Shown in pieces: positions 33,005 to 55,327 of a stretch of DNA of 64,000 nt. The DNA is taken from assembly GCA_963843145.1 (NCBI GenBank), contig CAWJJC010000025.1:32001-96000 (forward strand), written 5' to 3'. The first letter of the stretch is position 1. Each line of letters begins with the position of its first letter. Below the pieces are notes generated by a model. The model made no database searches. It had not been told where the DNA came from and saw nothing but the letters and a program-made list of their open reading frames with translations. Origin of the DNA: an uncultured delta proteobacterium. GTDB taxonomy: Bacteria > Desulfobacterota > RBG-13-43-22. The translations under genes were made by a program, and so were the position numbers.

Positions 33005-33093
33005 GTTTGGCAACTGCTTAGAAAAAGACTAGATGCGGTGAATTCAAACAGCATTCATTTTTCAATTGACTTCCGCTTTCTGGGGGAATATAT

Positions 33094-33109
33094 ATAACCA
33101 TATGGTTAT
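33094..33109. promoter_or_regulatory. Candidate ArsR operator 1 (perfect palindrome)
   Basis: ATAACCATATGGTTAT overlaps the arsR start; TTGACT at 33066. Confidence 0.7.
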
Positions 33110-33434
33110 GATTAAAGGGAAACAGCGTTTGTTCGAGAATCAGGCCCAGATCCTCAAGGCCTTGGGTCAACCTACCCGTTTGCAGATACTGGATCTGCTT
33201 AAAGAAGGGGAACGATGTGTCTGTGAAATCTTCCCGGCCATCGAACAGGAACAGGCGAATGTCTCCAAACACCTGACCATCCTCAAGCAAGCCGGGATCC
33301 TGGACTCCAGGAAAGAAGGCCTGCGGGTTATCTACTGGATCAAGAATAATGAAATCCTGGGTCTGATCCAAGGAGTTTCCCTGATGTTGAAGAACCAAGC
33401 CCAGGAACAGCGAGAAATTCTTTCCCACCTATAA
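33102..33434 (+). CDS. ArsR/SmtB family transcriptional repressor
   Basis: LKALGQPTRLQIL...ERCVCEI...QANVSKHLTILKQAGI...RKEG. Confidence 0.93.
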   Translation: MVMIKGKQRLFENQAQILKALGQPTRLQILDLLKEGERCVCEIFPAIEQEQANVSKHLTILKQAGILDSRKEGLRVIYWIKNNEILGLIQGVSLMLKNQAQEQREILSHL

Positions 33435-33459
33435 TTTTTTTTGTTGCTTCTATAACTTA

Positions 33460-33475
33460 TTAGACATATGGTTAT
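33460..33475. promoter_or_regulatory. Candidate ArsR operator 2
   Basis: TTAGACATATGGTTAT upstream of the thioredoxin operon. Confidence 0.6.
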
Positions 33476-33573
33476 TATTGAAATTAGGTCTTGAGAGGAA
33501 AGTTAATGAAGAAAGGACGAGTCATCGCCTGGGGGGAAAAATTATTTGGTCAAAATTTTTTGGAGGTCTGATA

Positions 33574-33807
33574 ATGGAGATAAAAATACTGGGACCCGGT
33601 TGTCCTAAATGCCAGCAAACCGAAAAGGTAGTCAAGGAAGCGGTTGCCGTGAGCGGGGTAAACGCTCAGATTGAAAAAGTCACCAACATGTTGGACATCG
33701 CCCGCTACGGCGTCTTAGGGACGCCGGCCGTGGTGGTCGACGGTCAAGTTAAATCCGTGGGAAAAATCCCGAAAAAAGAAGACGTTTTGAGCTGGATTAA
33801 ACCATAA
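33574..33807 (+). CDS. Small redox-active disulfide protein (MTH895/Thioredoxin_3 family)
   Basis: IKILGPGCPKC...YGVLGTPAVVVDG. Confidence 0.92.
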   Translation: MEIKILGPGCPKCQQTEKVVKEAVAVSGVNAQIEKVTNMLDIARYGVLGTPAVVVDGQVKSVGKIPKKEDVLSWIKP

Positions 33808-33826
33808 ATTTGGAAGGAGAGACGTT

Positions 33827-34213
33827 ATGGCTGAAGACTGTTGCACCCCTTCCGGATACATCATGATCCTGGCCTGTTCCGGAGGCTCGAATGTGGGCCA
33901 GTTGTCCAATCAGGCCGCGGTGGAATTGACTCAAGAGGGTTTTGGAAAAATGTTTTGCCTGGCCGGTATCGGAGCGCAGCTTTCGGGGTTTGTCCAGTCC
34001 GCCAAAGATGTACCGGATATGGTCGTGCTGGACGGCTGTTCGGTCGGCTGCGCCAAGGGAATCCTGGAACAGGCCGACATCCCACCCAAAAATTACCTGG
34101 TCTTAACCGAGCTGGGAATTGAAAAAAATAAGGACTTCACCCTAAGCCGGGAAGCGGTCGACCGGGTCAAGCAGGCCGCCAAGGCGACCTGCGTCCGCGT
34201 CGCCCCGGCCTGA
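33827..34213 (+). CDS. DGC-domain putative zinc-binding protein
   Basis: ACSGGSNVGQL; MFCLAGIG; LDGCSVGC. Confidence 0.9.
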   Translation: MAEDCCTPSGYIMILACSGGSNVGQLSNQAAVELTQEGFGKMFCLAGIGAQLSGFVQSAKDVPDMVVLDGCSVGCAKGILEQADIPPKNYLVLTELGIEKNKDFTLSREAVDRVKQAAKATCVRVAPA

Positions 34214-34363
34214 CGGTGGCCCCGGTCTCAGGTCCAAGAGATCATCTTTCCCCTGGCCGAAGCTGCCCATACGTCTTGCTCTGGGTAGGACGCTGCCGAA
34301 CAACGGAAACGGACCAGGCCACTCTGGATAGAATAACTCCTTTTCAGGAGGCAAAAAAACCCA

Positions 34364-34741
34364 ATGCCCCATCTTAAAAAAATAATTATTGGTCTGACCC
34401 TGGCCGTTATAGGCGCCGGGCTTATCTCCGCGGCCTGGGCCGGTCCCCCCGAAGTGCCGGTCAAAGGAATGGTAACCCTGGTGGACCTGGGAGCCGGCAC
34501 CTGTATTCCCTGTAAGATGATGGCGCCCATATTGGAAAAATTGGAAAAAGTCTATCGAGGGAAAGCAGCGGTCGTTTTCATCGATGTCTGGAAAACCCCG
34601 GATGAGGCCAAACGATTCAACCTCCAGGTAATCCCTACCCAGATTTTTTATGACCAAAAAGGGAAAGAGGTCTACCGCCATATGGGCTTTATGGCAGAAA
34701 AAGATATTGTGTCCGTCCTGAACAAATTAGGAGTTGACTAA
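34364..34741 (+). CDS. Exported thioredoxin
   Basis: Signal peptide; DLGAGTCIPCKMM; IPTQIF; RHMGF. Confidence 0.9.
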   Translation: MPHLKKIIIGLTLAVIGAGLISAAWAGPPEVPVKGMVTLVDLGAGTCIPCKMMAPILEKLEKVYRGKAAVVFIDVWKTPDEAKRFNLQVIPTQIFYDQKGKEVYRHMGFMAEKDIVSVLNKLGVD

Positions 34742-34762
34742 GGCAGGATATCCAGTCCAGGC

Positions 34763-35470
34763 ATGACGGAACAAATTTTCCTGACCATCAACGAATGGCT
34801 GGTCGGAGGAACGGTCATCGCCGCCCTGGGTTCTTTTCTCTGGGGTATGGTCAGCGTTCTCTTCAGCCCCTGCCATCTGGCCTCCATCCCTTTGATTGTG
34901 GCCTATGTGGGAGGGCAGGAGCGCATCCTCCCGCCCCGTCAGGCCGGCCTATATTCTCTGACTTTCACCAGCGGGCTTTTCATTACCATTGCCCTGATCG
35001 GAGTCATCTCCGCACTGCTCGGCCGGATGCTGGGCGATATCGGCAACTATTGGCAGATCCTGGTGGGAGTGATCCTGATCTGGGTGGCCCTGGGCATGCT
35101 GGGGGTGGAAAAGTTTTCCATGTCCGGCAGCCTGTTATACCGACTTAAGTTGAAAGGTCTCTTCGGGGCCCTGATCCTGGGATTGGCCTACGGGGTGCTT
35201 TCCGGTTCTTGCACCTTTGGTTTTATCGCCCCGATATTGGCCATTATCTCCGTGCAGAAGGAAGTGTCCTTCGGCCTGCTGCTGATCCTGCTGTTCGCCG
35301 TCGGCCATTGCCTGCCCATCGTCATTGCCGGGAGTTCCACCGCCGCCGTCCGCAAAGTGGTTGAAAACCGGTCCTGGCAGACCGGCAGCCAATGGTTCCG
35401 CCGCCTGGCCGGGGTCCTTATCGGAATGCTGGGAATTTATTTTATCATTAACCCCTTCTTTTTTTCTTAA
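34763..35470 (+). CDS. CcdA/DsbD transmembrane electron-transfer protein
   Basis: FSPCHL and SGSCT conserved Cys residues; about six TM segments. Confidence 0.88.
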   Translation: MTEQIFLTINEWLVGGTVIAALGSFLWGMVSVLFSPCHLASIPLIVAYVGGQERILPPRQAGLYSLTFTSGLFITIALIGVISALLGRMLGDIGNYWQILVGVILIWVALGMLGVEKFSMSGSLLYRLKLKGLFGALILGLAYGVLSGSCTFGFIAPILAIISVQKEVSFGLLLILLFAVGHCLPIVIAGSSTAAVRKVVENRSWQTGSQWFRRLAGVLIGMLGIYFIINPFFFS

Positions 35471-35564
35471 TGGAAGGCTATGCCCCCATGGATCTTTTGT
35501 GCAGCTTATGCGGTCGTGAGTCCCCGTTACTACTCCAAAAACAGCCATTGGAAAAGGAAAAGAA

Positions 35565-36726
35565 ATGAATGAAAATCGCCTTATTTTAATTCTGGGTCTG
35601 GCCGGTTTTGTGGTCATGGCCGACAACTGGGTGGTGTCCCCTATCCTCCCGGCTATTGCCAAGTCCTTACAGGTTTCTCCGGTTCGGGCCGGACTGTTGA
35701 TCAGCGCCTATATGATCCCTTTCGGCCTCTTCCAGTTGGTCTTTGGTCCACTGGCCGACCGCTATGGGAAAACGACCGGTGATCATCTTCTCCATGATCT
35801 TCTTCACCATCGGTACGGCCTTATGCGGGCTGGGCCTCGGCCTTTTTGACCTGGCCCTGTATCGGGCCATCACCGGCGTCTTCGCGGCCTCGGTCATGCC
35901 CATCTCGCTGGCCTTGATCGGCGATGTGATTCCGATGGAGCGGCGTCAGCAGGCCATCGGCACCTTTATGGGGATCGCCTTTTTAGGGCAAGGATTGAGC
36001 ATGGCGGTGGGGGGCTCCATTGCCTATTTCGTCAGTTGGCGGGGGGTCTTTTTCACTTATGCCGCCCTTTCCGTTATTTCCACCTTGCTGTTGATCCTCG
36101 TCGGTGGTAAAGCCCACTCCAAGAAAAACCCGGAAAGCCGGTTTTTCAAGCCCTATATTGACTTGCTGCGTAATGTGCGGAGCCTTTGGGTTTATATCGT
36201 CGTTCTCCTGGAAGGTATCCTGATCATCGGCTCTTTTTCCTACCTGGGGGCCTATACCGAATACCTCTTCAGCTATAATTATTTTGTTATCGGCTTGATC
36301 TTGACCGCCTTCGGGGCCGGGGCGGTGATTACCGGTCGCTTGGTGGGAAAAATCGCGCAACGAATCGGCCGGCTGAATACGTTGAGCCTTGGTCTGGCCT
36401 TGGCCGTAATCGCTGACGGCCTGCTCTTCTCGGTCACCACCCAACCTTGCGATATTGATCATCGCGAGTTGCCTTTTTGGGTATCGGATTCATGCTGGCC
36501 CATTCCAGCCTGCTGACTATCGCCACCGAATTCGCCCAAGATGGCGAGGGGAACGGCCATGTCCTTGGTAGCCTTCGGCTTTATGGGCGGCGGGGGTGTC
36601 GGCACGGCCATCGGAGGAAAGATAATCTCCTCCTCGGGGTATACCACCTTTTATGGTTGGTATGGACTTTTCCTGCTGCTTTTAGTAGGGCTGGCCAGAG
36701 GAGTGGTTCGAGAGGCCAAGAAATAA
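35565..36726 (+). CDS. MFS transporter split over several frames by single-base insertions (sequencing error or pseudogene)
   Basis: Pieces 35565.., 35743.., 36477.. and 36541.. join into one MFS (GPLADRYGKRPVI...). Shifts near 35770, 36440-36465 and 36536. Confidence 0.8.
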
Positions 36727-36757: not shown

Positions 36758-37069
36758 ATGAAAAGAGCGAAAAAAATTAATCTAATTGTGCCGATAGAAG
36801 AGAAGCCGGACGCTTGGTCGTCCCGATGAACGGGTTCCCGAGGGGAAAGACAGGCCACCGATCTTATCTGTTATTGTTTTGGTTATACCAGGCGGGATAT
36901 CGAACAAGATTTCATTAAAAATGGCCGTTCCCTGCTTCTGGAAAAGATCTCCGCCGAAAAGAAAGCCGGTGGGTGTGACTGTGCCGCAAAAAACCCGAAA
37001 GGTCGCTGATGTCTGGCTGACGTCCGCCGGGTAGTGGACGAAGTCAACCGACCCAATACCCCTGTCTAA
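36758..37069 (+). CDS. BFD-like [2Fe-2S]/metallochaperone (Csac_0668-like) selenoprotein; TGA 37007-37009 (and perhaps 36827-36829) read as Sec
   Basis: GGAG RBS; ...LICYCFGYT...GGCDCAAKNPKGRUCLADVRRVVDEV. TGA occupies the first Cys of the NPxGxCC motif. Hairpin CGTCCGC-cgggta-GTGGACG at 37021-37040. Confidence 0.75.
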
Positions 37070-37101: not shown

Positions 37102-37452
37102 ATGAAGGCCTTATATATTTCCGGAAGCCCCAGAAAAAACAGCAACACCGATTACCTGCTGAAAGAAGTTCTATCCGTGACCGGAGGAGAATTCCTCAAA
37201 ATCGCCGACTATCACCTGGAGCCGTGCCGCTCCTGTTGGACCTGTCTAAAATCAGGGAAATGCGCCATTGATGATGATATGACTCATTTGCTCAACCCCC
37301 GGGTGCTGGCCGCTGAAATCGTCGTTTTAGGCACTCCGGTCTATTTCAATACGGGAGAAATAGCGGATGGCCCTGAGGCCATAGAATCGGCTAGGAAGTT
37401 GGGCGACCGATTAATCGAACTCGGAGCGCTCCTTGGCCTTAAAAGCAGGTAG
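37102..37452 (+). CDS. Iron-sulfur flavoprotein/flavodoxin family, apparently internally deleted
   Basis: ISGSPRKNSNT; PCRSCWTC...C...DDM; GTPVYF then jumps straight to a C-terminal helix. Confidence 0.7.
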   Translation: MKALYISGSPRKNSNTDYLLKEVLSVTGGEFLKIADYHLEPCRSCWTCLKSGKCAIDDDMTHLLNPRVLAAEIVVLGTPVYFNTGEIADGPEAIESARKLGDRLIELGALLGLKSR

Positions 37453-37711: not shown

Positions 37712-38023
37712 ATGGCGCAGTTTGAAGTGATCGGATGAGTCACCTGAGGAGAATCCGAACCGCCGGCAGTTAGTTGGCGCATGTTAACGTTTCCAGATGA
37801 TACGCAAATCCGGGTTACCGGTTTGGTTGAGATACTGGCCGACCTTTACGCTGAAGGTCGACAGGCGAATGAGGAGACCGCCGAAGAGATCCTCGATCGA
37901 TTGGAAGCCAGGAAGAACTATATCCCTTCGTCGGACCGTGTCCGTAGAGAGTATGTTTATGTCCTGCTGAAGGAGTACCGCAACTACATTAAGGATCGAG
38001 CCGAAAACAGCCCGAGACGGTGA
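37712..38023 (+). CDS. Putative di-selenoprotein with an N-terminal U-x-x-U motif (103 aa)
   Basis: AAGGAGG RBS, ATG 37712, then MAQFEVIG-TGA-VT-TGA-GESEPPAVSWR in frame with ORF 37781-38023. Hairpin CGCCGGC-agtta-GTTGGCG at 37761-37779. Confidence 0.7.
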
Positions 38024-38030
38024 AACCGAA

Positions 38031-38273
38031 GTGGATCGACCATCCCCCTATCACATCCTCAAAATCCCCGTTACCGCTACTGAACAGGAAATCCGCCAGG
38101 CCTATCGTCAAATGGCCATGAAATTTCATCCGGACCGCAATCCGGGTGAACCTGAAATGGAGGAACAGTTCAAGAAAGTTCAAAGAGCCTATGAAACGCT
38201 TTTGGACGGAATCCGGAACCCTGGAAATTGCCCGGTATGGCGTTTTTGGAACGCCTGCTGTGATCTTAGATGA
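38031..38273 (+). CDS. Short DnaJ J-domain protein or fragment
   Basis: PYHILKI...EIRQAYRQMAMKFHPDRNP...FKKVQRAYETL. Confidence 0.7.
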   Translation: MDRPSPYHILKIPVTATEQEIRQAYRQMAMKFHPDRNPGEPEMEEQFKKVQRAYETLLDGIRNPGNCPVWRFWNACCDLR

Positions 38274-38337
38274 TCAGGTCAAATTCGTAGGCAAAATCCC
38301 TGGAAAGGAAAAGATTGGGACCTGGTCCCAGAAATGA
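38218..38337 (+). pseudogene. C-terminal remnant of a second MTH895-type thioredoxin
   Basis: TLEIARYGVFGTPAVILDDQVKFVGKIP is close to the C-terminus of 33574-33807 but lacks the CxxC half. Confidence 0.7.
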
Positions 38338-38358: not shown

Positions 38359-39366
38359 ATGAGACAAAACCAAGAAAAACAAAGAGCAGACCTTCCGGAG
38401 TCCACCGGCGGGGAGTTCACATCCCCTCACCAGCATGATCACTCGGGAAATGCGCATACCTTGGACAAGGGAGAGACGACCGGACCTCGGCTCCTCATAA
38501 CCCTTGCCATCAACCTGTTGATCCCTGCGGCCCAGGTCGTAGGCGGGGTCTATGCCCACAGCATGGCCCTGATCTCAGACGCTGTCCATAATTTCAGCGA
38601 CTTTACCGCCATATTGATCGCCTATTTCGCCTTTCGCATCGGGAAAAAAGGCGCCTCACCACAAAACACCTTCGGATACAAACGGGCCGAAATCCTTGGG
38701 GCGGCAATCAACGTCGCCCTTCTTGTGGCCGCGGCGGTCTTTATCTCGTACGAGGCCTTTGAGCGATTCAGGCACCCTCAACCTGTAATCGGTCAAATAG
38801 TGATTTACCTGGCGGCCGTGGGCATCCTGGGAAACGGTCTTTCAGCCTGGCTGCTCCATCGAGATTCGAAACACAGTCTCAACATGCGGGGGGCCTTTCT
38901 CCACATGGTGGGGGACATGCTGACTTCCGTTCTCGTGCTGATCAACGGCCTCATTCTGATTTTCAGGCCCTGGTACTGGCTGGACCCATTGCTGTCATTT
39001 CTCATTGTGATCTTTATCCTGAAAAACTGCTGGTCCATTCTGAGGGATGCTACCGGCATCCTGATGAACGCCACCCCGAGAAACCTCGATCTTGAAGAGA
39101 TCAAGAAGGCGTTGCAGACTATTCCGGGCGTATGCGGCGTCCATTACCTGCACGCCTGGAACGTGAGTTCCTCCAGCATCGCCTTTTCCTGCCACGTAGA
39201 GGTGACGGATCAGCTTGTAAGCAAAACCGAACCGCTTGCTGAAAAGATTCGCCATGCGCTCTTCCATCATTTCGGGATCGATCACCCCATCCTGCAGTTC
39301 GAAACAGCCCAGTGCGGCAACGGCAGCCTGCTCTGCGAGCTGTCCTGTGGGAATCAAAAGGGCTAA
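38359..39366 (+). CDS. Cation diffusion facilitator (CzcD-like)
   Basis: His-rich N-terminus; SMALISDAVHNFSD; TFGYKRAEIL; SLNMRGAFLHMVGD; Cys-rich tail. Confidence 0.92.
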   Translation: MRQNQEKQRADLPESTGGEFTSPHQHDHSGNAHTLDKGETTGPRLLITLAINLLIPAAQVVGGVYAHSMALISDAVHNFSDFTAILIAYFAFRIGKKGASPQNTFGYKRAEILGAAINVALLVAAAVFISYEAFERFRHPQPVIGQIVIYLAAVGILGNGLSAWLLHRDSKHSLNMRGAFLHMVGDMLTSVLVLINGLILIFRPWYWLDPLLSFLIVIFILKNCWSILRDATGILMNATPRNLDLEEIKKALQTIPGVCGVHYLHAWNVSSSSIAFSCHVEVTDQLVSKTEPLAEKIRHALFHHFGIDHPILQFETAQCGNGSLLCELSCGNQKG

Positions 39367-39384: not shown

Positions 39385-40374
39385 ATGTTGCGGCAAATGC
39401 AGAAGATTTCAAAGGGTATCGAATCGAATCTGATTGTGCTCATCCTCCTTTCCATCGTCGCTGGTGTCGTCTTTGGCTGGAGGTTCCCCGATCAGGCCCA
39501 TGGGCTGAAAAGCTACTCAAGGGCCGCGCTCTTTATCATGCTCTACCCGATGATGATCGGCCTGCGCATCGAGGAGGTGGGCAAAGCCGCCGCCAACCTG
39601 AAATTGATCAGCCTTTCCATGCTTTTCAATTTTCTTTTCTCGCCGCTTTTGGCGGCAGGGCTGGCTTATGTTTTTCTTCACAACCGTCCGGATTTCGCCG
39701 TCGGTCTGATCCTGACCGGCACAGTGCCCTGCGCGGGCATGGTCGCAGGGTGGACGGGCTACGCCAGGGGCAACGTGGCGCTGGCCATGGTGGTTGTAGC
39801 GCTCAGCCTGCTGGTCAGCATCGTTATGATCCCCATCTGGATGCCCATCCTAGCCGGCGTCTATGTCCGATTGGATGCCTGGGCCATGTTCAAGGACATC
39901 CTGATTACCGTGGTCGTTCCGCTCATTCTGGGGGATCTCACCCGACGCCTGATCATCCGATGGAAAAGCCCGGAGACATTCCGGCAGATCAAACCGATCC
40001 TTCCGGGCGTATCCATGCTGGGCATGTACATCATCGTCTTTATCTCCATGGCGCTGGAGGCCGAAAACGTGATCAAGCACCCGGAGTATTTCCTGATCGT
40101 GCTGATCCCGCTGGCCTTCTTGTATGCGATCATGTTCAGCGGTTCGGTACTGTTCTCCATACTGGCGAAGTTTTCCTATGAAAACATGATTGCCTTCTCT
40201 TACGGCGTGGCGGGCAAAAACATCGCCATCGCCCTGGCGCTCGCGACTATCTTTTTCAGCCCGATGACGGTGCTGGTGTTGGCCATCAAGCCGGTCATCC
40301 AGATCACTTTCATGGTGGCCTTTCTGCATCTATCTTCCCGGCTGGAGCAGAAATTTTTTACTCGGCAAAGTTAG
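39385..40374 (+). CDS. Acr3/bile acid:Na+ symporter family protein
   Basis: MLYPMM; GLILTGTVPCAGMV..WT..A.GN; KNIAIALALA. Confidence 0.85.
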   Translation: MLRQMQKISKGIESNLIVLILLSIVAGVVFGWRFPDQAHGLKSYSRAALFIMLYPMMIGLRIEEVGKAAANLKLISLSMLFNFLFSPLLAAGLAYVFLHNRPDFAVGLILTGTVPCAGMVAGWTGYARGNVALAMVVVALSLLVSIVMIPIWMPILAGVYVRLDAWAMFKDILITVVVPLILGDLTRRLIIRWKSPETFRQIKPILPGVSMLGMYIIVFISMALEAENVIKHPEYFLIVLIPLAFLYAIMFSGSVLFSILAKFSYENMIAFSYGVAGKNIAIALALATIFFSPMTVLVLAIKPVIQITFMVAFLHLSSRLEQKFFTRQS

Positions 40375-45319: not shown

Positions 45320-45335
45320 ATTACTTATTGGTTAT
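45320..45335. promoter_or_regulatory. Candidate ArsR operator 3
   Basis: ATTACTTATTGGTTAT with TTGACA at 45298. Confidence 0.55.
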
Positions 45336-45384
45336 ATTTTCATAAGGGATTACATGATTCACCGGGAAAAGGCCATAACATCTT

Positions 45385-45903: not shown

Positions 45904-46996
45904 ATGGTAGAACCGATTACTAAAAAACTGTCTTTCCTGGACCGGTTTTTAACCCTTTGGATCTTTCTGGCCATGCTTTTGGGCGTGGGTTCCGGTTATT
46001 TTTTCCCGGGAGTGGCTCAATTCTGGAACCTGTTCCAGTCCGGGACCACCAACATTCCCATCGCCGTCGGCCTGATCCTGATGATGTATCCCCCCCTGGC
46101 CAAGGTTAAATACGAAGAACTGGGCGGAAGTCTTTAAAAATTACAGGGTCTTGATCCTTTCGCTGATCCAGAATTGGGTCATCGGTCCCATCCTGATGTT
46201 TTTCCTGGCCATCCTCTTTCTGGCCGGCTACCCGGAATACATGGTCGGCCTGATCCTGATCGGCCTGGCCCGCTGCATCGCCATGGTCATCGTCTGGAAC
46301 GAACTGGCCTCCGGCGACACGGAATACTGCGCCGGTTTGGTGGCCTTCAACTCCATTTTTCAGGTCCTTTTCTTCTCCATCTACGCTTATATCTTCATCA
46401 CCGTCCTGCCCGGCTGGTTCGGTCTGAAAGGGACCGTGGTGGACATTTCTATCGGCCAGATCGCCGAAAGCGTATTCATCTACCTGGGCATCCCCTTTAT
46501 CGCCGGCGTCATCACCCGCTTCACCCTGATCAAGGTCAAGGACAAAACCTGGTATCATGAAAGATTCATCCCCAAGATCAGTCCCATCACGCTCATCGCC
46601 CTGCTGTTCACCATCATCGTCATGTTTTCCCTTAAGGGCGAATATATCGTTCAATTGCCGCTGGACGTGATCCGCATCGCCATCCCGCTAACTGTTTATT
46701 TCTTCATCATGTTTTTTATTTCCTTCTATATGTCGATCAAGGTTAAGGCCACCTATGAACAATCCGCCACCCTTTCCTTTACCGCCGCCTCGAATAATTT
46801 CGAACTGGCCATTGCCGTGGCGATCGCCGTATTCGGGATTCAGTCCGGCGCGGCCTTTGCCGCGGTTATCGGTCCGCTGGTGGAGGTCCCGGTGTTGATC
46901 AGCCTGGTCAATGTGGCCTTGTGGTTCAAACGAAAATATTTTCCCTTTGCCCTGGAGACCCCCACCGGGGTGTGCCATCTGACTTGTAAACCATAG
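45904..46996 (+). CDS. acr3: Acr3 arsenite efflux transporter (one +1 frameshift near 46125)
   Basis: [14 protein letters not shown]; MMYPPLAKV; GLARCIAMV; [12 protein letters not shown]; GPLVEVP. Confidence 0.92.
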
Positions 46997-47080
46997 CCAA
47001 AAATTTTCCAATTGTCGGTTATAAACTCGCAATCTAAATTCCGAAACATACTAAGAGGAGATACACAAGAGGAGTTTCCC

Positions 47081-47605
47081 ATGCTGCTTAAAGGCTATCG
47101 GAAGGAAATATTCCGCCCGGAGTGCAATCCGAGTTTTCAATCTCTACACTGCATCGCCTATCTGGACGAAGATATCGAGACCGTTCTGCCTTATTTGAAC
47201 GCCAGGTTGGGGGGCGACGAGTTTTATCGGGAACCCCCGGCCGTAACCTTTCGGCTCCAGGGAAAATTGATTACCGTCCAGTCCCGGCAGATTGCCGTCA
47301 ACGCCCTGCGGGACGCCGAAGAGGCCGATAAAATCCTGGAGTGGATCAAAAGGGAAATCAACGAAACCTGGGAAAAACGGGCGGAGATCGAGCCCAGCTA
47401 CGAAAGCGCCCCGAAACCGAAACTGTTGGAAATTCTAAAGTTGCTGCCCAAAACCAATTGTCGGGCCTGCGGGGAAGCGACTTGCCTGGTCTTCGCCGCC
47501 CGGACGGCCGAAGGGGTGAAAGGACCGGAAGATTGCCCCCCCCTGACTACTGAGGGAAAGTCCAGACTTCAAAATTATTTGAGCCGATTCCGGCTGGAAT
47601 ACTAA
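47081..47605 (+). CDS. (Fe-S)-binding protein with C-terminal FeS domain, common beside ars genes
   Basis: ECNP...LPYLNA...LPKTNCRACGEATCLVFA...CP. Confidence 0.85.
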   Translation: MLLKGYRKEIFRPECNPSFQSLHCIAYLDEDIETVLPYLNARLGGDEFYREPPAVTFRLQGKLITVQSRQIAVNALRDAEEADKILEWIKREINETWEKRAEIEPSYESAPKPKLLEILKLLPKTNCRACGEATCLVFAARTAEGVKGPEDCPPLTTEGKSRLQNYLSRFRLEY

Positions 47606-47699: not shown

Positions 47700-48899
47700 A
47701 TGCCCAAAAAAAGATGGCCCCTTTATTTGATTTTATTTACCTCCTCAATAATTCTGCTGGCACCCCTCTATCTTTTCGGGGAAGGGAAGAAAGATGAAAT
47801 CGGGTCTTTAAAGGAATTGATTTCCCGCTATGATTCCACTCGGTGCAAGGAATGCCATGCGGAGATTTACGCCCAGTGGGAAAAATCCCATCATGCCCGG
47901 CCCTTGATGGGCATGGACGACTGGATCTTCATGTCCAAATACCTCAAAGAGGGAGTTCTGGCAGTCAAGTCGCCCGAGCAGGCCACCAAGGCCAATTTCC
48001 CCTGCGCCAAATGCCATCTGCCCCAGCTTTTCAAAGCAGCGGATAGCGTGGCCGCCGAACTGGCCGCCGCCGTCTTCCGGAACGACAAAAAAACCATCCG
48101 CCGATTGAATATCGGCTGCCTGGTCTGCCACCAGGAAAAGGCCGTGGTTCATGGCCGGCCGAAGTTATCGCTCCTCTACGGCTCTCGGGAAATCCAGGAT
48201 CATGAGGGCCTCCCGGTAGAGAAAAGCTCCCTGTTGAAATATCCCCTCTTCTGCGGACAGTGCCATGGCCTCGGGCCCAACCTCGAATTCGAAAATCCGG
48301 TCCAGTGCGCCACGTTGTATGGCAGTTATCTCCACGCCTACATTCCCAACGGCGGGGCCCAGACCTGCCAGGACTGCCACATGCCGGGCAAGGACCATAC
48401 CTGCCTGCCGAACTTCAACGACCGGGCCGGTACCTCCGCCCGTCTCCGCCAGGCCTTGCCCCTGGAGGTGGAAACCCTGGGCTATGTTTTCCAGATAGAA
48501 GAAGGAAAGCATTTACCCCTGGCCGTGGTTAAAACCCGGATAACCAATAAGGCCGGCCACCGGATTCCGGACGGCTGACCGACCCGCACCCGGGTGGTCC
48601 TGGAAGTGACCGCTACCGCTCCCAACGGTCAGAAATTCTTTGAAGGCACAAAATTTTATATGCCCCAGGCCGGCGACGGCCGGAGCCCGATCATGGTCCT
48701 GGGACCGGACAAGAAACTGGGCCTGTTGCGCGATACCAGCCTTCAGCCTTTCCGGCCTAAGGAGGAAACCTTTGAAATCCCGGTCCCCAAAGGAATCCAT
48801 GAGATTACCGTGGCGGTTCAGTTGACCTACCAGCCCCGCCCGGGGAATATTTATTCCCTCCAAACCATCAGCCGTCAGGTGCGGATAGATACCCCTTAA
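47700..48899 (+). CDS. Five-heme cytochrome c selenoprotein (ExtKL-like), Sec at TGA 48576-48578
   Basis: Signal peptide; CKECH, CAKCH, CLVCH, CGQCH, CQDCH; AGHRIPDG-TGA-PTRTRVVLEV continues in frame into ORF 48594-48899. Confidence 0.85.
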
Positions 48900-48997: not shown

Positions 48998-50950
48998 TTG
49001 GTTAGTCTTGCTCACCTTATGGGATACCGGGAACTGACCGCCTTACTGATCCTTCTCCCTTTTATCACCGCGCCGCTTTATTCTCTGTTCCAGGCGAAAA
49101 AGATTCAGTCCTTCGGGGTAATTTCCACCGGGATCCTTTTGGGACTGGGGGCACTGTTCATGATCCCCCAGGTCCCTTTTTCCTTTTCACCGGAATCTTT
49201 GGGGCCGCTGAAACCGGCGACCCTGATCGAAGCCGGTGACTTTGCCCTGCTCCTGCTCTTCCTTTATTATGGTTTTAGGCATCGCCACCGGCTGATTCAA
49301 ATGCTCTCCGGGCTTCAGATCCTGCTGCTGATTTTTATCCATCTCTATTTTCCTCAAGCGGATCCCAGTTACCCGGTCTTTCTCTGCGACCGCCTGGCAC
49401 TCCTTTTAATCTTGATCGTCTCCCTGATCGGTTCGGTGATCGTCTGGCAGGCCCTGCCCTACTTGGAGAATCACGAAAAACACCTCCAAATCAAGAAAAC
49501 GCGACGGCACCGTTTCTTCCCGGTGCTCATCCTTTTCCTGGGAGCCATGAATGGGGTCGTCCTGTCCAATGACCTCCGCTTCTTCTATTTTTTCTTCGAG
49601 ATCACCACCCTCTGTTCTTTTTGGCTGATCCTGCATGACCGGACCGCGGAGGCCCTGACCAATGCCCTCCAGGCCCTCTGGATGAACAGCCTGGCCGGAT
49701 TGGCCCTGTTAGTGGGTCTCCTGGCCTGTTTACTAGATTACGGAACGCTGGACCTCCAGGGGATCATTCAGCGGGGGTCTGCTGGCCTTTACGGAATCCT
49801 GCCCCTGACTTTTCTTTGCCTGGCCGCTTTCATCAAATCCGCCCAATTCCCTTTTCAGAACTGGTTGCTGGGGGCTATGGTGGCCCCCACCCCGGTCTCC
49901 GCCCTGCTTCATTCCAGCACCATGGTGAAAATCGGGGTTTATTTCATCCTGCGGTTAACCCCGGCTTTTCAGGGAACGTTTCTAAGCTACGGCATCGCCC
50001 TTTTCGGTTCCTTTTCCTTTTTGGCCGCCGCCGCCCTGGCGGTGGGCCAGAGCAACGGTAAAAAAGTCCTGGCCTATTCCACCATCAGCAACCTGGGTCT
50101 GATGTTCGCCATGGCCGGTCTGAACACTCCGGAGGCGCTGAGCGCCGGGCTACTGCTGATCCTCTTCCACGCCTTGACCAAGGCCCTGCTGTTTCTCTGC
50201 GTCGGGGTGATTGAACAGCACCTGGACAGTCGGAATATCGAAGATATGGCCGGCCTTTATGCCCGGATACCCCTGACGGCCCTGATTACGGTAATGGGGA
50301 TCATCATGATGATTATGCCCCCCTTCGGCTTGGTCCTGGGCAAATGGATGGCCTTCGAAGCGGCCTCCCGAAACCTATCGGTCATCGTCCTGCTCACCGC
50401 CGGCAGCGCCCTGACTGTGGTGTATTGGGCCCGCTGGGCGGGGACCTTGATGGGTCATCCCCTTTCCGGACCCCTGATCCCCGAGAAACAGCCGATCCCT
50501 ACCTGGACCGCGTTGGGGGCCCTCGGTCTCGGCGGCCTGGGCCTGGGCGTTGCCGCTCCCTGGGTTTACGAGTGGCTGCTCACCGGGACTTTTCTGCAGA
50601 ATATTCCACTTTCCTATACCATTCACCAAGGCACACTGGAAAATCGGTACGGGGCCTTTGCCGTTTTGCCCTTGTCCCTGGTCGCTTTTCTGGGCCTCTG
50701 GGTCTCGGTCTTCTTCCTTCACTGGGCGCGGAAAGGAAAAATCAGCCCCCCATACCTGAGCGGCCTGGAAACGGATTACCCCGGAATTTTTGTCGGTCCC
50801 CTGAACCTGCCGGTTAAGGCCGAAACGAAAAACTATTACTTGTCCACCCTTTTTAACGAAAAGCGGGTCACCCTTTGGGTGAATCTGGCGGCGGGCGGCC
50901 TGTTGATTTTAATCCTGGCCGGGGGAGTATCATGCGTCTGGTCCTCTTAA
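48998..50950 (+). CDS. echA: Ech hydrogenase antiporter-like subunit A
   Basis: KSAQFPF.NWL.GAMVAPTPVSALLHSSTMV; KKVLAYSTISNLG. Confidence 0.85.
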   Translation: MVSLAHLMGYRELTALLILLPFITAPLYSLFQAKKIQSFGVISTGILLGLGALFMIPQVPFSFSPESLGPLKPATLIEAGDFALLLLFLYYGFRHRHRLIQMLSGLQILLLIFIHLYFPQADPSYPVFLCDRLALLLILIVSLIGSVIVWQALPYLENHEKHLQIKKTRRHRFFPVLILFLGAMNGVVLSNDLRFFYFFFEITTLCSFWLILHDRTAEALTNALQALWMNSLAGLALLVGLLACLLDYGTLDLQGIIQRGSAGLYGILPLTFLCLAAFIKSAQFPFQNWLLGAMVAPTPVSALLHSSTMVKIGVYFILRLTPAFQGTFLSYGIALFGSFSFLAAAALAVGQSNGKKVLAYSTISNLGLMFAMAGLNTPEALSAGLLLILFHALTKALLFLCVGVIEQHLDSRNIEDMAGLYARIPLTALITVMGIIMMIMPPFGLVLGKWMAFEAASRNLSVIVLLTAGSALTVVYWARWAGTLMGHPLSGPLIPEKQPIPTWTALGALGLGGLGLGVAAPWVYEWLLTGTFLQNIPLSYTIHQGTLENRYGAFAVLPLSLVAFLGLWVSVFFLHWARKGKISPPYLSGLETDYPGIFVGPLNLPVKAETKNYYLSTLFNEKRVTLWVNLAAGGLLILILAGGVSCVWSS

Positions 50951-51780
50951 CGGCTTTCGGTCTGCTGACGGCCCCACTCCTGGGCGGCCTGATTATCGGT
51001 CTGGACCGAATCCTCACCGCCCGGCTACAGTCCCGAATCGGCCCGCCGCTTTTCCAGCCTTTTTATGACCTGGGCAAGCTCTGGCAAAAGGAAAGGACTA
51101 TCGCCAATCCTTGGCAGGCCTTTTGCGCCCACGGCTATTTGGCCGCCGCCTCCATCGCCCTGGCCCTGTTCGGGCTGCAGTCCGATCTACTGCTCATCCT
51201 CTTCGTTCAGGCCGTGGGCGCCCTGTTTTTGGTTATCGGGGCCTTTTCCTCCGGTTCTCCCTATAGCCAGGTGGGTGCCCACCGGGAGCTACTGCAGATC
51301 CTGGCCTATGAACCGCTCCTGCTGTTAGTGCCCGCCGGCTTCTATTTGGAGACCCACAGTTTTAAGATCATCGATCTCTATCAATGGAACGAACCTCTTT
51401 TGTTACGGTTACCCCTTTTGTTTCTGGTTCTCCCTTTGGTCCTGACCATAAAACTGCGCAAATCACCCTTTGACCTCTCCGCCTCTCATCAGACGCATCA
51501 GGAATTGGTGCGGGGAATCTTGACCGACTTTTCCGGTCCTTATTTGGGACTGATTGAACTAGCCCATTTTTTTGATATCGTCCTCGTTCTGGGGGTCTGT
51601 TCGCTCTTCTGGGCCAGCGGTTGGGCAGGGATGATCGCTTTACCGGGAGCCGTTTTTGCTTTTCAGATCATAATCGATACGGCCTCGGCCCGGATGAACT
51701 GGCGCTGGATGTGGGCCTGGGCCTGGGGGATCGGATTCCCGCTTTGTTTGATCAACTTGATTTGGATTGCTCGGGGATAG
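50932..51780 (+). CDS. echB: Ech hydrogenase subunit B (NuoH-like)
   Basis: DRILTARLQSRIGPP.FQPFYDL.KL; KSPFD.S.SH..HQELV.G. Confidence 0.85.
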   Translation: MRLVLLTAFGLLTAPLLGGLIIGLDRILTARLQSRIGPPLFQPFYDLGKLWQKERTIANPWQAFCAHGYLAAASIALALFGLQSDLLLILFVQAVGALFLVIGAFSSGSPYSQVGAHRELLQILAYEPLLLLVPAGFYLETHSFKIIDLYQWNEPLLLRLPLLFLVLPLVLTIKLRKSPFDLSASHQTHQELVRGILTDFSGPYLGLIELAHFFDIVLVLGVCSLFWASGWAGMIALPGAVFAFQIIIDTASARMNWRWMWAWAWGIGFPLCLINLIWIARG

Positions 51781-51787
51781 GCGGGAA

Positions 51788-52255
51788 ATGGGATCCATTC
51801 ACTCTTTTTTTCAAAAGTCCCGGATCAAATCTCCCTGGCTGCTCCATTATGACTGCGGGAGCTGCAACGGCTGCGATATCGAGGTCCTGGCCTGTCTGAC
51901 CCCGGTCTATGACCTGGAACGCTTCGGTATCATCAATGTGGGCAACCCCAAGCACGCGGATATTTTCCTGGTCACTGGGACCGTCAATCCCCGGAACCGG
52001 AAGGTCTTGCTTAATCTTTACCGGCAAATACCCGTCCCTAAGATCGTGGTGGCCCTCGGCTCTTGCGCTCTCAGCGGAGGAATTTTCCGGGAGGCGTATA
52101 ATGTCATCGGAGGTGTGGATCAGGTGATCCCGGTGGATATTTATGTGCCCGGCTGCCCCCCCAGGCCCGAATCCATTATCGACGGAGTGCTCTTGGCCCT
52201 TAACCAATGGGCTCCTCAAAATAAACCCCTTCCGGGGCAGGATAACCCCGGATAA
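51788..52255 (+). CDS. echC: Ech hydrogenase small subunit C
   Basis: GSCNGCDIE; GSCA.SGG; VPGCPPRPE. Confidence 0.9.
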   Translation: MGSIHSFFQKSRIKSPWLLHYDCGSCNGCDIEVLACLTPVYDLERFGIINVGNPKHADIFLVTGTVNPRNRKVLLNLYRQIPVPKIVVALGSCALSGGIFREAYNVIGGVDQVIPVDIYVPGCPPRPESIIDGVLLALNQWAPQNKPLPGQDNPG

Positions 52256-52267
52256 GATCGGTGCGTC

Positions 52268-52630
52268 ATGCCTGACGAAATGATTTCCGTCACGATGGAA
52301 CGATTGATCCCGGAAACCACCCGGCTGAAAAACGAAGGCCACCGCTTGGTGACCCTGACCTGTAGTGTGTTGCCGGAAGAGGGCTGGCAGATTATTTACA
52401 CCTTCGACCGGGATTATGAAATGGTGCATTTGTCCTTAAACGTTCCCCGAGGGCGGGAGGTACCCAGCCTTTCCTCCGTATTCTGGGCCGCCTTTTTGGT
52501 GGAAAACGAGATCCAGGACTTGTTCGGCCTGCGCTTTTCGGCGCTGATCATCAACTATCAGCGCACCTTTTATTTGGAGGATCAGGCCCAGGAACCTCCT
52601 TTTGGCCGGCAGCCCGGTAAAGGCGACTGA
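52268..52630 (+). CDS. echD: Ech hydrogenase subunit D (NuoC-like)
   Basis: RLVTLTC; VPSLS; ENEIQDLFG. Confidence 0.85.
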   Translation: MPDEMISVTMERLIPETTRLKNEGHRLVTLTCSVLPEEGWQIIYTFDRDYEMVHLSLNVPRGREVPSLSSVFWAAFLVENEIQDLFGLRFSALIINYQRTFYLEDQAQEPPFGRQPGKGD

Positions 52631-52633
52631 TTT

Positions 52634-53710
52634 ATGCCCCAATCCATTATTCCTTTCGGCCCACAACATCCGGTTCTTCCCGAACCAATTCACCTTACGC
52701 TGACCTTCGAAGATGAGATTGTTACCGAAGTTCAGCCGGCCCTGGGGTTTGTCCACCGGGGGTTGGAAAAGATGGTGACCATCCGAGATTTTCAGCAAAT
52801 CCAACAGGTGGTGGAACGAGTCTGCGGGATCTGCTCCATGATCCATGGGATGTGTTATGCCCAGGGGATGGAAAAAATGATGGGAGTCGACGCCCCTCCC
52901 CGAGCGCGATTTCTGAGGGTGGTCTGGTCGGAGCTACACCGCATGCAGAGCCATCTTCTCTGGTTGGGCCTGTTTGCCGACTCCTTGGGCTTCGAAAGCC
53001 TTTTCATGGAATGTTGGAAAATCCGGGAAAAGATATTGGAGGTGAACCAGGCCACCACCGGCAACCGGGTGATTATCTCGGTAAACGTCATCGGCGGGGT
53101 CCGGAGGGACCTTAGTCCCGGACAGATTGACTGGATACTCCGTACTATCCAGGAGGTGGAACAGGAGTTTAAGGCGGTTCAATCCGTCTTTCTCAAGGAC
53201 TACACCATCCGGAAGCGAACCATTGGCCAAGGGGTCCTGACCCGCGAACAGGCCTACGCCCTGGGGGCGGTTGGACCCACGCTTAGAGGCAGCGGCGTGG
53301 CCCTGGATGCCCGGAAACTGGGATATGCCGCCTTTAAAGAACTGGATCTGGAGCCGGTGGTGGAAAGCGATGGAGATTGTTTCGCCCGATTGAAAGTCCG
53401 CCTCCGGGAGGTGCTGCAGTCGGTAGACCTGGTCCGACAGGCCCTTTCGCGCCTGCCCTCGGGGGAGGTGCGGATCAAGGTGAAGGGATTTCCTTCCGGA
53501 GAAGTTTTTTCTCGGGTGGAGCAGCCCCGGGGAGAATTGTTCTATTATATCAAGGCAGGCGGCCAGAAACACTTGGACCGCCTGCGTATCCGGACCCCGA
53601 CCTTCGCCAACCTGCCGGCCCTGCTGACCATACTGCCGGGCATGGTTTTGTCCGCTGTGCCGGCGGTCGTTCTATCCATTGATCCCTGTATCAGTTGCAC
53701 GGAAAGGTAG
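52634..53710 (+). CDS. echE: Group 4 [NiFe]-hydrogenase large subunit EchE
   Basis: PFGPQHP; L1 ERVCGICS; L2 DPCISCTER with no C-terminal extension. Confidence 0.92.
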   Translation: MPQSIIPFGPQHPVLPEPIHLTLTFEDEIVTEVQPALGFVHRGLEKMVTIRDFQQIQQVVERVCGICSMIHGMCYAQGMEKMMGVDAPPRARFLRVVWSELHRMQSHLLWLGLFADSLGFESLFMECWKIREKILEVNQATTGNRVIISVNVIGGVRRDLSPGQIDWILRTIQEVEQEFKAVQSVFLKDYTIRKRTIGQGVLTREQAYALGAVGPTLRGSGVALDARKLGYAAFKELDLEPVVESDGDCFARLKVRLREVLQSVDLVRQALSRLPSGEVRIKVKGFPSGEVFSRVEQPRGELFYYIKAGGQKHLDRLRIRTPTFANLPALLTILPGMVLSAVPAVVLSIDPCISCTER

Positions 53711-53726
53711 GCCAAGGCGAAATCGA

Positions 53727-54083
53727 ATGTTTAAAATGACCCCCCTGCTCCTCCGAAACCTGTTAGCACCCAGGGCCACCCGCCCTTATCCCCGGGAGGT
53801 TAGACCGGCCCTGGAAGGGACCCGGGGAAGGCTCTTTATTCGGATTGAGGATTGTATCTTCTGCGCCCTGTGCGCCCTGAAATGCCCTTCTCAATGCCTG
53901 GCGGTCGATAAACAACAAGCCACCTGGCGTTATGATCCCTTTATCTGCGTCTATTGCGGAATCTGTGTTGAGACCTGCCCGGCCCATTGCCTCTACCAGG
54001 ATCCAAGCTTCCCGGAACCGGCCGAGAGGAAAGAGGCCATTCTTATAAAAGGGGCGCTAAAAAAAAGCCTGCCGAAAAGATGA
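53727..54083 (+). CDS. echF: Ech hydrogenase 2x[4Fe-4S] subunit F
   Basis: CIFCALCALKCP and CVYCGICVETCP. Confidence 0.88.
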   Translation: MFKMTPLLLRNLLAPRATRPYPREVRPALEGTRGRLFIRIEDCIFCALCALKCPSQCLAVDKQQATWRYDPFICVYCGICVETCPAHCLYQDPSFPEPAERKEAILIKGALKKSLPKR

Positions 54084-54200
54084 AAAAGGCCTCGAGGGCT
54101 TCGAGGGCTGGATGATCGGGTGTCCGCTCTACGATCGGGACATAATCGCCGAGATGAAGACCTTTCTTTTTCTGAATCGAGATATTATTCTTGACATTAT

Positions 54201-54216
54201 ATTCCTTAATGGTTAT
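54201..54216. promoter_or_regulatory. Candidate ArsR operator 4
   Basis: ATTCCTTAATGGTTAT next to TTGACA (54191). Confidence 0.55.
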
Positions 54217-54250
54217 ATATTGATCTAATGTAATTTGGGAGGTTCCGATC

Positions 54251-55327
54251 ATGGAAGAAAATTCAGGGTGTGCCTGTTCCATAAAAGTTGATGAGATTCC
54301 CCAGTTAAACGGTCTGAGGAGAAAAGGCATTTATCTTGGTCTGGGGTTAGTCGGGTGGTGGCTCATCTATCAGCAGTTGCTTTCGGTCGCCCAGTGGATA
54401 ACCTATAGCCTGTTCGGGCTGGACCGCGGGACCCATTTAGCTGAAGCAACCGCCTTCTTCCTCTATGATGTGCCCAAGGTATTCATGCTTTTGATATTGA
54501 TTGTTTTTGGAGTAGGCCTCCTTCGTTCCTTCTTTACCCCCGAAAAGACCCGAGACATCCTGGCCGGCAAAAGGGAATCGGCGGGCAATGTGCTGGCCGC
54601 CCTGCTGGGCATCGCCACCCCTTTTTGCACCTGCTCCGCCATACCCCTGTTTATCGGATTTGTGGAAGCGGGTATCCCTTTGGGAGTCACCTTTTCTTTC
54701 CTGATCTCGGCCCCCATGATCAACGAAATCGCCCTCGTCCTGCTCTACGGACTTTTTGGTTGGAAGGTGGCTTTCCTCTACCTGGGAACCGGCCTTTCCA
54801 TTGCCATCTTCAGCGGCTGGGTTATCGGCCGGCTCCACCTGGAGAAACAGGTGGAGGACTGGGTCTACGAAATCCGCTCCGGCCTCCGGCCGTTGGTAAT
54901 GGACACCCTGACCTGGTCGGGCCGGATCGGCTATGCCGTCCAGGCGGTCAAGGATATCGTCGGCAAAGTGTGGATATATATCGTCGGAGGGATTGCCGTG
55001 GGGGCCGCCATCCACGGCTTTGTGCCGGTGGGGTTCATGGCCTCCATTATGGGTAAGGAGGCCTGGTGGTCTGTTCCCCTGGCTGTGGTTTTAGGAGTTC
55101 CCATGTACTCCAACGCCGCCGGGATCATTCCCATTGTCCAGGCCCTGCTGGGCAAAGGGGCCGCCCTGGGTACCGTCCTGGCCTTCATGATGGCCGTCAT
55201 CGGGTTGTCACTGCCGGAGACCATTATCCTGAGAAAGGTCCTCAAGCCGGGTTTGATCGCCGCCTTTATCGGGGTGGTCTCAACCGGGATCCTCCTGGTT
55301 GGATTCCTGTTTAACGCCATTATCTAA
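54251..55327 (+). CDS. DUF318/ArsP-family permease
   Basis: TPFCTCSAIP; SFLISAPMINE; GVPMYSNAAG; LSLPE. Confidence 0.9.
   Translation: MEENSGCACSIKVDEIPQLNGLRRKGIYLGLGLVGWWLIYQQLLSVAQWITYSLFGLDRGTHLAEATAFFLYDVPKVFMLLILIVFGVGLLRSFFTPEKTRDILAGKRESAGNVLAALLGIATPFCTCSAIPLFIGFVEAGIPLGVTFSFLISAPMINEIALVLLYGLFGWKVAFLYLGTGLSIAIFSGWVIGRLHLEKQVEDWVYEIRSGLRPLVMDTLTWSGRIGYAVQAVKDIVGKVWIYIVGGIAVGAAIHGFVPVGFMASIMGKEAWWSVPLAVVLGVPMYSNAAGIIPIVQALLGKGAALGTVLAFMMAVIGLSLPETIILRKVLKPGLIAAFIGVVSTGILLVGFLFNAII

Follow-up and report, generated by a model that had tools for sequence, protein, structure and literature searches.

What kind of system is encoded where the gene of an ArsR-type repressor stands ahead of thioredoxins, exporters, selenoproteins and a multihaem cytochrome, with an Ech hydrogenase operon among them? 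The question is raised by a stretch of 64 kb (G000:C25:32001-96000, called the window here) from a metagenome-assembled member of the Desulfobacterota, whose genome of 5.35 Mb lies in 32 contigs at 97.9% completeness and 6.9% contamination. A preliminary description of this DNA had proposed an undescribed, ArsC-independent pathway of metalloid reduction and efflux that draws low-potential electrons from Ech. The ArsR-type, selenoprotein-rich metalloid locus of that proposal stands; its novelty, the role of Ech and the independence from ArsC are not supported. The locus is probably a mosaic ArsR-type arsenic/antimony resistance island of Desulfobacterota, composed of known modules with a selenium-based extension. 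Arsenic resistance is poorly understood in sulfate-reducing and related anaerobes, where arsenic occurs largely as thio-species, and the gene neighbourhood described below offers a concrete enzyme: MccSep, for which solved structures and a working assay exist and of which one clade lies in ars clusters. If the link is true, selenium supply would influence arsenic tolerance and speciation in anoxic soils and aquifers.

The MccSep selenocytochrome and its neighbourhood

Open reading frame (ORF) lists and family scans place three units on one strand, with the ech genes between the last two. The second unit (45385-48899) consists of a fusion of an N-terminal domain with Thioredoxin_3, acr3, the gene of an Fe-S (PF04060) protein and the multihaem cytochrome gene. 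The cytochrome gene contains an in-frame TGA, predicted to encode selenocysteine (Sec), followed by a hairpin resembling a selenocysteine insertion sequence (SECIS):

47700..48899, plus strand: MccSep/ExtKL pentahaem selenocytochrome (NCBIfam equivalog NF040886, 442 bits, cut-off 250, residues 28-396), Sec codon 48576-48578 (U293)
48594..48613, plus strand: SECIS-like hairpin GTGGTC-CTGGAAGT-GACCGC, after GHRxPDG-TGA in 12 of 12 loci examined

Judged by its sequence, the cytochrome is a member of the described family MccSep/ExtKL; the periplasmic seleno-cytochrome of the preliminary description is thus real, and its family was already known. It matches the structures PDB 9wt8/9wt9 with E 7e-65. 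In the alignment Cys203 (VQCATLY) falls on Cys239, a haem ligand, and the TGA on residue 325 of 9wt9, the U325A chain. All five CxxCH motifs (C49/C52/H53, C102/C105/H106, C140/C143/H144, C185/C188/H189 and C223/C226/H227) are invariant in eight aligned MccSep sequences, which also keep C203 and the Sec position. The N-terminus is hydrophobic. Of 29 homologue rows from 61 related genomes, 14 retain the TGA, at identities as low as 29%. The accessible part of a preprint describes the Geobacter enzyme as a periplasmic tetrameric polysulfide reductase that also acts on selenite, through U325 and C239; this part of the text puts the number of homologues at 637, most of them in Desulfobacterota and Nitrospirota, and does not discuss gene neighbourhoods (bioRxiv 10.1101/2025.11.18.688581).

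The gene neighbourhood was compared over 80 MccSep loci of other species, each taken with flanks of up to 10 kb to either side and divided by identity rank into a close set (n=36, at least 52% identity) and a distant set (n=44, 50% or below). Partners in the close loci were Acr3 (24), Thioredoxin_3 (23), CcdA (22), secreted thioredoxin (21), the FeS protein (19), DGC (16), arsR (16) and the N-domain-thioredoxin fusion (15). With arsR excluded, at least one ars-type partner was present in 34 of the 36 close loci vs none of the 44 distant ones, a count that overstates independence because neighbouring genomes are kin. The close loci span several named families (Desulfomonilaceae, Syntrophobacteraceae, Desulfarculaceae, Desulfobacteraceae), and in genome G015 the genes form a single run, arsR-permease-thioredoxin-DGC-fusion-acr3-FeS-MccSep. 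The earlier suggestion that the units belong together thus agrees with their neighbourhood in other genomes. In a quick maximum-likelihood tree, a branch with an SH-like approximate likelihood ratio test (SH-aLRT) value of 100 parts 37 rows, 35 of them with ars context, from 44 rows with none; the ars-context label changes three times on this tree, against a shuffle mean of 26.5, and none of 500 shuffles was as low. A search of the available literature retrieved no paper joining Acr3, multihaem and selenocysteine, related searches leading to reviews, and the ars-embedded MccSep clade is apparently an unpublished link.

Might the cytochrome be an ordinary MccSep of sulfur respiration, with thioredoxin and CcdA as its maturation helpers and the ars neighbourhood functionally meaningless? 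The partial description of the family as a polysulfide reductase without arsenite activity would fit, as would the DsrE-like genes and rhodanese gene just upstream of arsR, DsrE-like homologues being found near MccSep in non-ars loci also. However, the closest loci retain ars-type partners across several families though their gene orders are shuffled, MccSep lies within a run of ars genes in many of them, and an operator-like box (box 3 below) heads the acr3-FeS-cytochrome unit of the window. We consider this alternative improbable.

The genes upstream of arsR (30658-32958) encode a weakly DsrE-like protein with a small partner, as well as a TPR protein and a secreted rhodanese. Some non-ars loci have homologues of the DsrE-like pair at 5-6 kb from MccSep (L101 and L130 of both genes, L118, L122 and L139 of one), which hints at a sulfur-relay link to MccSep.

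Selenocysteine codons and the small selenoproteins

Five in-frame TGA codons in three genes had been reported for the locus, and all five are present (36827 and 37007; 37736 and 37745; 48576). Hairpins had been reported to follow them; conserved hairpins lie 3' of 37007, 37745 and 48576, and none conserved follows 36827. The Sec machinery was likewise found in the genome, with selA, selB, selD (which has a TGA of its own) and tRNA-Sec. That four of the five TGAs (37007, 37736, 37745 and 48576) are selenocysteine codons is well supported by these sequence features. Besides the cytochrome, two small proteins are concerned:

36758..37069, plus strand: CopZ-like BFD-type 2Fe-2S 'GxUC' selenoprotein (PF04324, E 1.8e-4, below the gathering score), Sec codon 37007-37009
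37022..37039, plus strand: SECIS-like hairpin GTCCGCC-GGGT-AGTGGAC, 12 nucleotides (nt) past the Sec codon at 37007, in 13 loci with compensatory changes
37712..38023, plus strand: 103-residue di-Sec protein MAQFEVIG-U-VT-U-G..., Sec codons 37736-37738 and 37745-37747
37761..37779, plus strand: SECIS-like hairpin CGCCGGC-AGTTA-GTTGGCG, consensus GCCGRC-AGUUA-GUYGGC

The GxUC motif of the CopZ-like protein is GRUC (residues 82-85), in the context NPKGR-U-CLADV in the translations, and a TGA is present in all of the 31 best homologue rows from 301 genomes of the phylum. The ORF scores under the cut-offs of both NCBIfam models of the CopZ N-terminus, with 55.3 bits vs 100 for NF047645 and 21.7 vs 190 for NF045877. 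Its other TGA (36827-36829) lies 14 codons before the first Cys. This codon was rejected as a Sec codon: it is absent from the 12 homologues examined and lacks the hairpin of the family. The interval from this TGA to the CxC contains no ATG, GTG or TTG, and the TGA places the N-terminus and start of the protein in doubt. In genome G001 merely the C-terminal third of the gene survives. The present copy may be damaged. The TGAs that end the DGC gene (34211) and the N-domain-thioredoxin gene (45880) were likewise considered and rejected as Sec codons; they are ordinary stops because the genes stop at this position in relatives too and the distance to acr3 differs by as much as about 600 nt.

Related genes were seen elsewhere. 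A second GxUC CopZ-like gene lies at G000:C8:20826-21029, and in L048 (G003:C55) an open-frame region upstream, presumably HMA-like, forms a fusion with the GxUC domain. Two further genes of the genome likely encode selenoproteins, namely an ArsM-like methyltransferase with one TGA (G000:C14:22776-23432; 177.7 bits, below the cut-off) and selD with its TGA (G000:C27:447576-448499).

The di-Sec protein belongs to a family that is unnamed and mis-annotated. Gene callers start past both Sec codons, at ATG 37781, and give a product of 80 residues, whereas the true frame runs from ATG 37712 and reads MAQFEVIG-TGA-VT-TGA-GESEPP.... In the 301 genomes the G-U-x-x-U head with two TGAs occurs in 14 rows, down to 40% identity; variants of the family include one Cys-Cys form and U-x4-U forms. 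The hairpin has five consensus pairs in 15 sequences, two of them with compensatory changes. In a protein database the family comprises 719 clusters, mostly of 77-85 residues and named 'hypothetical', two of which are translated with W at both TGAs. The protein has no match in Pfam (E up to 0.1) or NCBIfam (E up to 1), and it does not match the catalogued UxxU models NF041115 (metal-binding protein) and TIGR02605 (FmdB family). AlphaFold (pLDDT 81.6) predicts a disordered N-terminal tail that carries both Sec residues and precedes a beta-hairpin and three helices. Foldseek gave no PDB match at E <= 0.001, and the best hit of a wide VIA-align search, to homeodomain-like three-helix bundles, had a Z of 5.8 within the stated noise range; no fold was assigned on this basis. 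The fusion gene at 45385 encodes an N-terminal domain homologous to the body of the di-Sec protein, and Acr3 lies at most 1.5 kb from the di-Sec gene in seven of 19 other loci.

Promoters, exporters and the hydrogenase

Four similar boxes had been described at four promoters of the locus, and the sequence bears them out:

33094..33109, unstranded: box 1, perfect 16-nt palindrome ATAACCATATGGTTAT, covering the -10 region and the arsR start; putative ArsR operator
33464..33475, unstranded: box 2, ACATATGGTTAT, preceding the first long unit; similar in G001 and G003
45327..45337, unstranded: box 3, ATTGGTTATAT (sequence TTATTGGTTATAT near 45327), ahead of the thioredoxin-acr3-FeS-cytochrome unit; similar in G003
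54208..54218, unstranded: box 4, AATGGTTATAT (sequence TTAATGGTTATAT near 54208), covering the promoter -10 region of the permease gene

Box 4, ahead of arsP, is identical in G001 and G003, and the other boxes resemble their counterparts in relatives; boxes 2-4 share the pattern T(A/T)(A/T)TGGTTAT(A/T)(A/T). The window contains six WWTGGTTATWW sites vs 0.47 expected, and none of 100 shuffles reached at least six, in a test that is partly circular because the pattern was derived from sites that it then counts. Four of the six sites correspond to the named promoters, the arsR palindrome being counted once; the other two are at 12476-12486 and 44847-44857. A TGGTTAT half-site also lies 20 nt ahead of arsR in L077, a Desulfarculus locus. 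In L042, from a genome of a different family (G039), the region from the -35 element to the arsR start contains a perfect inverted repeat of some length, TTGGTTATTTGG-N8-CCAAATAACCAA, built on the same half-site as the boxes of the window. The site at 12476 is about 100 nt upstream of an ORF (12580-13824) for a flavin oxidoreductase, named Old-Yellow-Enzyme-like from its sequence alone.

The first unit (33102-40374) begins with arsR and runs through ArsE-like Thioredoxin_3, DGC, secreted thioredoxin, CcdA, MFS, the BFD/CopZ-like ORF, a truncated FMN reductase and a small ORF of no family (the di-Sec gene) to remnants of a J-domain and a Thioredoxin_3 gene, CDF and an Acr3-related SBF transporter. 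Unit 3 is the ArsP_1-family permease (54251-55327). The remaining genes of the three units are as follows; the arsR start, ATG 33102, was our choice inside ORF 33066-33434.

33102..33434, plus strand: arsR, ArsR/SmtB repressor with an ERCVCE motif (HTH_5, E 2e-15; NF033788, 90 bits, cut-off 55)
33571..33807, plus strand: ArsE-like thioredoxin, Thioredoxin_3 with GCPKC (PF13192, E 5e-28; TIGR00412, 95.8 bits, cut-off 62)
33827..34213, plus strand: DGC-domain protein (PF08859, E 5e-36), its TGA an ordinary stop
34364..34741, plus strand: secreted thioredoxin with hydrophobic N-terminus and CIPC (PF00085, E 4.7e-13)
34763..35470, plus strand: CcdA/DsbD-type membrane electron conduit (PF02683, E 9.2e-16)
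35565..36726, plus strand: MFS transporter, with four single extra bases that break the frame (35773, 36450, 36465, 36540)
37102..37452, plus strand: FMN reductase-like protein, truncated or internally deleted (PF03358 over profile positions 1-83 of 152)
38031..38337, plus strand: remnant with J-domain ORF 38031-38273 (PF00226, E 1e-21)
38359..39366, plus strand: CDF cation efflux transporter (PF01545, E 3.8e-45; TIGR01297, 274 bits)
39385..40374, plus strand: SBF-family, Acr3-related transporter (PF01758, E 6.7e-40; TIGR00832, 116.5 bits, cut-off 282.8)
45385..45882, plus strand: fusion of an unnamed N-domain with ArsE-like Thioredoxin_3, GCNNC (PF13192, E 2.5e-24, residues 88-161)
45904..46996, plus strand: acr3 arsenite efflux gene with one extra base at 46128 (TIGR00832, 362.6 bits, cut-off 282.8)
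47012..47605, plus strand: cytoplasmic protein with C-terminal RnfB/CdhE-type Fe-S domain (PF04060, E 6.4e-12)
54251..55327, plus strand: ArsP_1-family permease (PF03773, E 4.9e-72)

The gene called Acr3 in the first unit is merely an Acr3-related SBF transporter, because its score falls below the acr3 cut-off. The acr3 gene of unit 2, scored on the 281-residue part encoded by 46151-46996, is the sole one of the genome. A search of the Atlas with the FeS protein retrieved only 'putative Fe-S cluster protein' clusters carrying PF04060. The permease also scores with the SaoE (119 bits) and SO_0444 (90 bits) models, under both cut-offs.

These transporters bear on a second alternative, in which the island serves mainly against Se/Te oxyanions or soft metals, MccSep reducing selenite, the selenoproteins together with the CopZ-like and CDF proteins handling Se, Cu or Zn, and ArsR sensing another ligand. 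Selenite is reduced by Geobacter MccSep, and the ext cluster has been implicated in selenite and tellurite reduction in what is accessible of the source (PMC5877670). The CDF, CopZ-like and heavy-metal-resistance periplasmic proteins would suit such a role, as would the scores of the permease with SaoE and the Cu/Zn efflux model SO_0444. On the other hand, the bona fide acr3 equivalog is the commonest partner of MccSep in the close loci and arsC occurs in nine of the 36. ArsR carries a CVC pair, which we take to be typical of As(III) sensors. The arsP-arsE-DGC module, moreover, is arsenic-induced in Pseudodesulfovibrio mercurii ND132, according to the accessible part of a preprint (bioRxiv 10.1101/2022.10.17.512643). 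A main role in selenium, tellurium or metal resistance is thus unlikely.

Parts of the locus appear altered. Five single extra bases are present relative to intact relatives, four in MFS and one in acr3. All five sites are covered by contigs of the short-read run X2, which are single and of low depth and lack each extra base; run X1 does not span them. The extra bases may be assembly consensus errors or real, strain-specific decay. The FMN reductase orthologue of G015 has about 186 nt more in the middle of the gene. The J-domain ORF and the C-terminal half of a Thioredoxin_3 gene (38146-38337) overlap in different frames, an arrangement not found at the corresponding place in G001-G003 and one that has the look of a recombination scar. 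The interval from unit 1 to unit 2 encodes a response regulator and a heavy-metal-resistance periplasmic protein, both on the opposite strand, followed by lgt and an AAA ATPase gene. Beside an AAA/DUF4143 ATPase gene, 44960-45012 resembles a tRNA 3' end (...GGTTCAAGTCCCGTACTGCCCACCA); neither ARAGORN nor Rfam called a tRNA there, and it may be the remnant of an integration site. After arsP, 55959-56354 encodes an HTH protein with two CW domains, a homologue of which follows MccSep or arsP in four of the 36 close loci and in G051.

The hydrogenase genes between the last two units are complete, as had been stated:

48998..54083, plus strand: echABCDEF, group-4 [NiFe] hydrogenase, all six subunits (PF00361, PF00146, PF01058, PF00329, PF00346/PF00374, Fer4)

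The large subunit carries RVCGICSMIH and DPCISCTER, which we take to be the Ni-Fe ligand motifs. The ech genes begin 98 nt past the cytochrome gene on the same strand, between it and arsP, and the same adjacency is seen in G004. However, Ech adjoins MccSep in only one of the 36 close loci, arsP directly follows the cytochrome gene in G001 and G003 with no ech between them, and in G002, the closest relative, an EchE 97% identical to that of the window lies 46 kb from MccSep. An Ech orthologue is present in G005 and G011, where no MccSep match was found. No box was seen ahead of echA, which has its own promoter-like site. Ech is a chance neighbour and not a conserved member of the system. As had been noted, the window has no recognisable arsC, arsA or arsM: whole-genome searches with their models gave no match on contig C25. 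An LMW-PTP arsC homologue is encoded on contig C9 (126.6 bits, below the cut-off of 174.3; 72% identical to the cluster-borne copy of G001), and homologues of this gene lie inside nine of the 36 related clusters and also in the clusters of G001 and G037. Clusters of this type are therefore not independent of ArsC; here arsC is encoded elsewhere. That Ech supplies low-potential electrons from H2 and ferredoxin, in an ArsC-independent pathway, to selenoproteins and a seleno-cytochrome that reduce or bind As, Se or metals is most improbable, the position of ech and the lack of arsC in the window notwithstanding.

The proposed resistance island and its relatives

What favours an arsenic/antimony resistance island is apparent at the level of sequence, in the assignments to families, the Sec codons and the hairpins that accompany them, the boxes and the conserved neighbourhood. 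Its parts fall into a cytoplasmic thiol/selenol set (ArsE-like thioredoxins, DGC, the GxUC 2Fe-2S selenoprotein and the small protein with the flexible G-U-x-x-U tail), an exporter set (Acr3, the Acr3-related SBF transporter, CDF and the ArsP-family permease) and a periplasmic branch (CcdA, secreted thioredoxin and the MccSep-type pentahaem selenocytochrome). In such an island As(III) would free the boxes of ArsR, and the di-selenol and dithiol proteins would bind As(III) and pass it to the pumps. CcdA would deliver reducing power to the secreted thioredoxin, which may keep Cys and Sec of MccSep, or its apo-form, reduced while arsenite is pumped into the periplasm. By analogy with the Geobacter enzyme, MccSep could act at its site of Cys-ligated haem and Sec to cleave S-S or Se-S bonds of polysulfide, selenite-type or As-S species; our guess at its substrate is polysulfide or a thioarsenic species, which would yield sulfide to complex arsenite. 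Arsenate would be reduced by the LMW-PTP ArsC encoded on the other contig, and Ech would be an independent operon that arrived by rearrangement.

A more specific version, which we put forward only tentatively, is that this MccSep clade was recruited to arsenic resistance as a periplasmic haem-plus-Sec reductase of As-S/As-Se species (thioarsenates, As-polysulfides), backed by a relay of CcdA and thioredoxin dedicated to it, with cytoplasmic di-selenol (G-U-x-x-U) arsenite chaperones feeding the pumps. It would constitute an undescribed selenium-dependent layer of arsenic detoxification peculiar to sulfidic habitats.

Several points weigh against the resistance island as drawn here, besides the kinship behind the neighbourhood count and the circularity of the motif test. 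Nothing ties MccSep chemically to arsenic, and the Geobacter enzyme showed no activity with arsenite in the accessible part of its preprint (bioRxiv 10.1101/2025.11.18.688581). Thioredoxin and CcdA may simply be helpers of cytochrome maturation. The close and distant loci were divided by identity rank, and the tree is an unrooted one from a quick search that does not include the Geobacter enzyme. The evidence for a four-unit ArsR regulon consists of motifs, a search of sequencing runs having listed no RNA run that contains the stretch, and the box pattern is not clearly enriched across the 80 foreign loci (10 sites in 583 kb in group A vs 6 in 622 kb in group B). Finally, the frameshifts in MFS and in the only acr3, the second TGA of the CopZ-like gene and the truncated FMN reductase imply that the island may be in partial decay, provided that the indels are not errors of assembly.

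Much of the island has known counterparts, and the word 'undescribed' in the preliminary description is not supported: the cytochrome is of the MccSep/ExtKL family, the GxUC protein is catalogued, and an arsR-arsP-arsE-DGC operon is reported as arsenic-induced in ND132. The hydrogenase resembles Ech-type group 4 [NiFe] hydrogenases in having six subunits of the expected Pfam families, and it has no conserved linkage to ars or MccSep genes. The CopZ-like protein shares with the GxUC form of the CopZ family a BFD-like domain with CxC...CxC, the G-R-U-C motif and the conserved hairpin; it differs in its scores under the NF047645/NF045877 cut-offs, its extra TGA and the lack of a canonical start after that codon. 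The di-Sec protein resembles the ArsD metallochaperone by functional analogy alone, as a small cytoplasmic protein with close-set soft-ligand residues encoded beside an arsenite pump, features that we assume for ArsD. In contrast, it matches no family in sequence or fold and its ligands would be two Sec residues on a disordered tail; membership of the ArsD family was rejected.

The closest counterpart of the cytochrome is MccSep/ExtKL of Geobacter sulfurreducens, with which it shares the five CxxCH motifs, the Sec in GHRxPDGU, the Cys203/Cys239 pair and the SECIS-like hairpin. The setting differs: according to the accessible part of the sources, the Geobacter gene lies in an extHIJKL cluster with porin and rhodanese genes, whereas the present one is accompanied by arsR, acr3, arsE-like, DGC, thioredoxin-CcdA and FeS genes. 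The arsenic-type genes themselves recall the operon of P. mercurii ND132. In the available portion of that preprint, arsR-arsP-arsE-DGC is up-regulated by arsenic, and cultures formed thioarsenicals that were left unidentified (bioRxiv 10.1101/2022.10.17.512643). As far as this portion describes the operon, both loci encode ArsR, a PF03773 permease, a PF13192 ArsE thioredoxin-like protein and a PF08859 DGC protein. In the window, however, the permease forms a separate unit 20 kb off with its own box, and the locus adds thioredoxin-CcdA, CDF, Acr3, the FeS protein and three selenoproteins.

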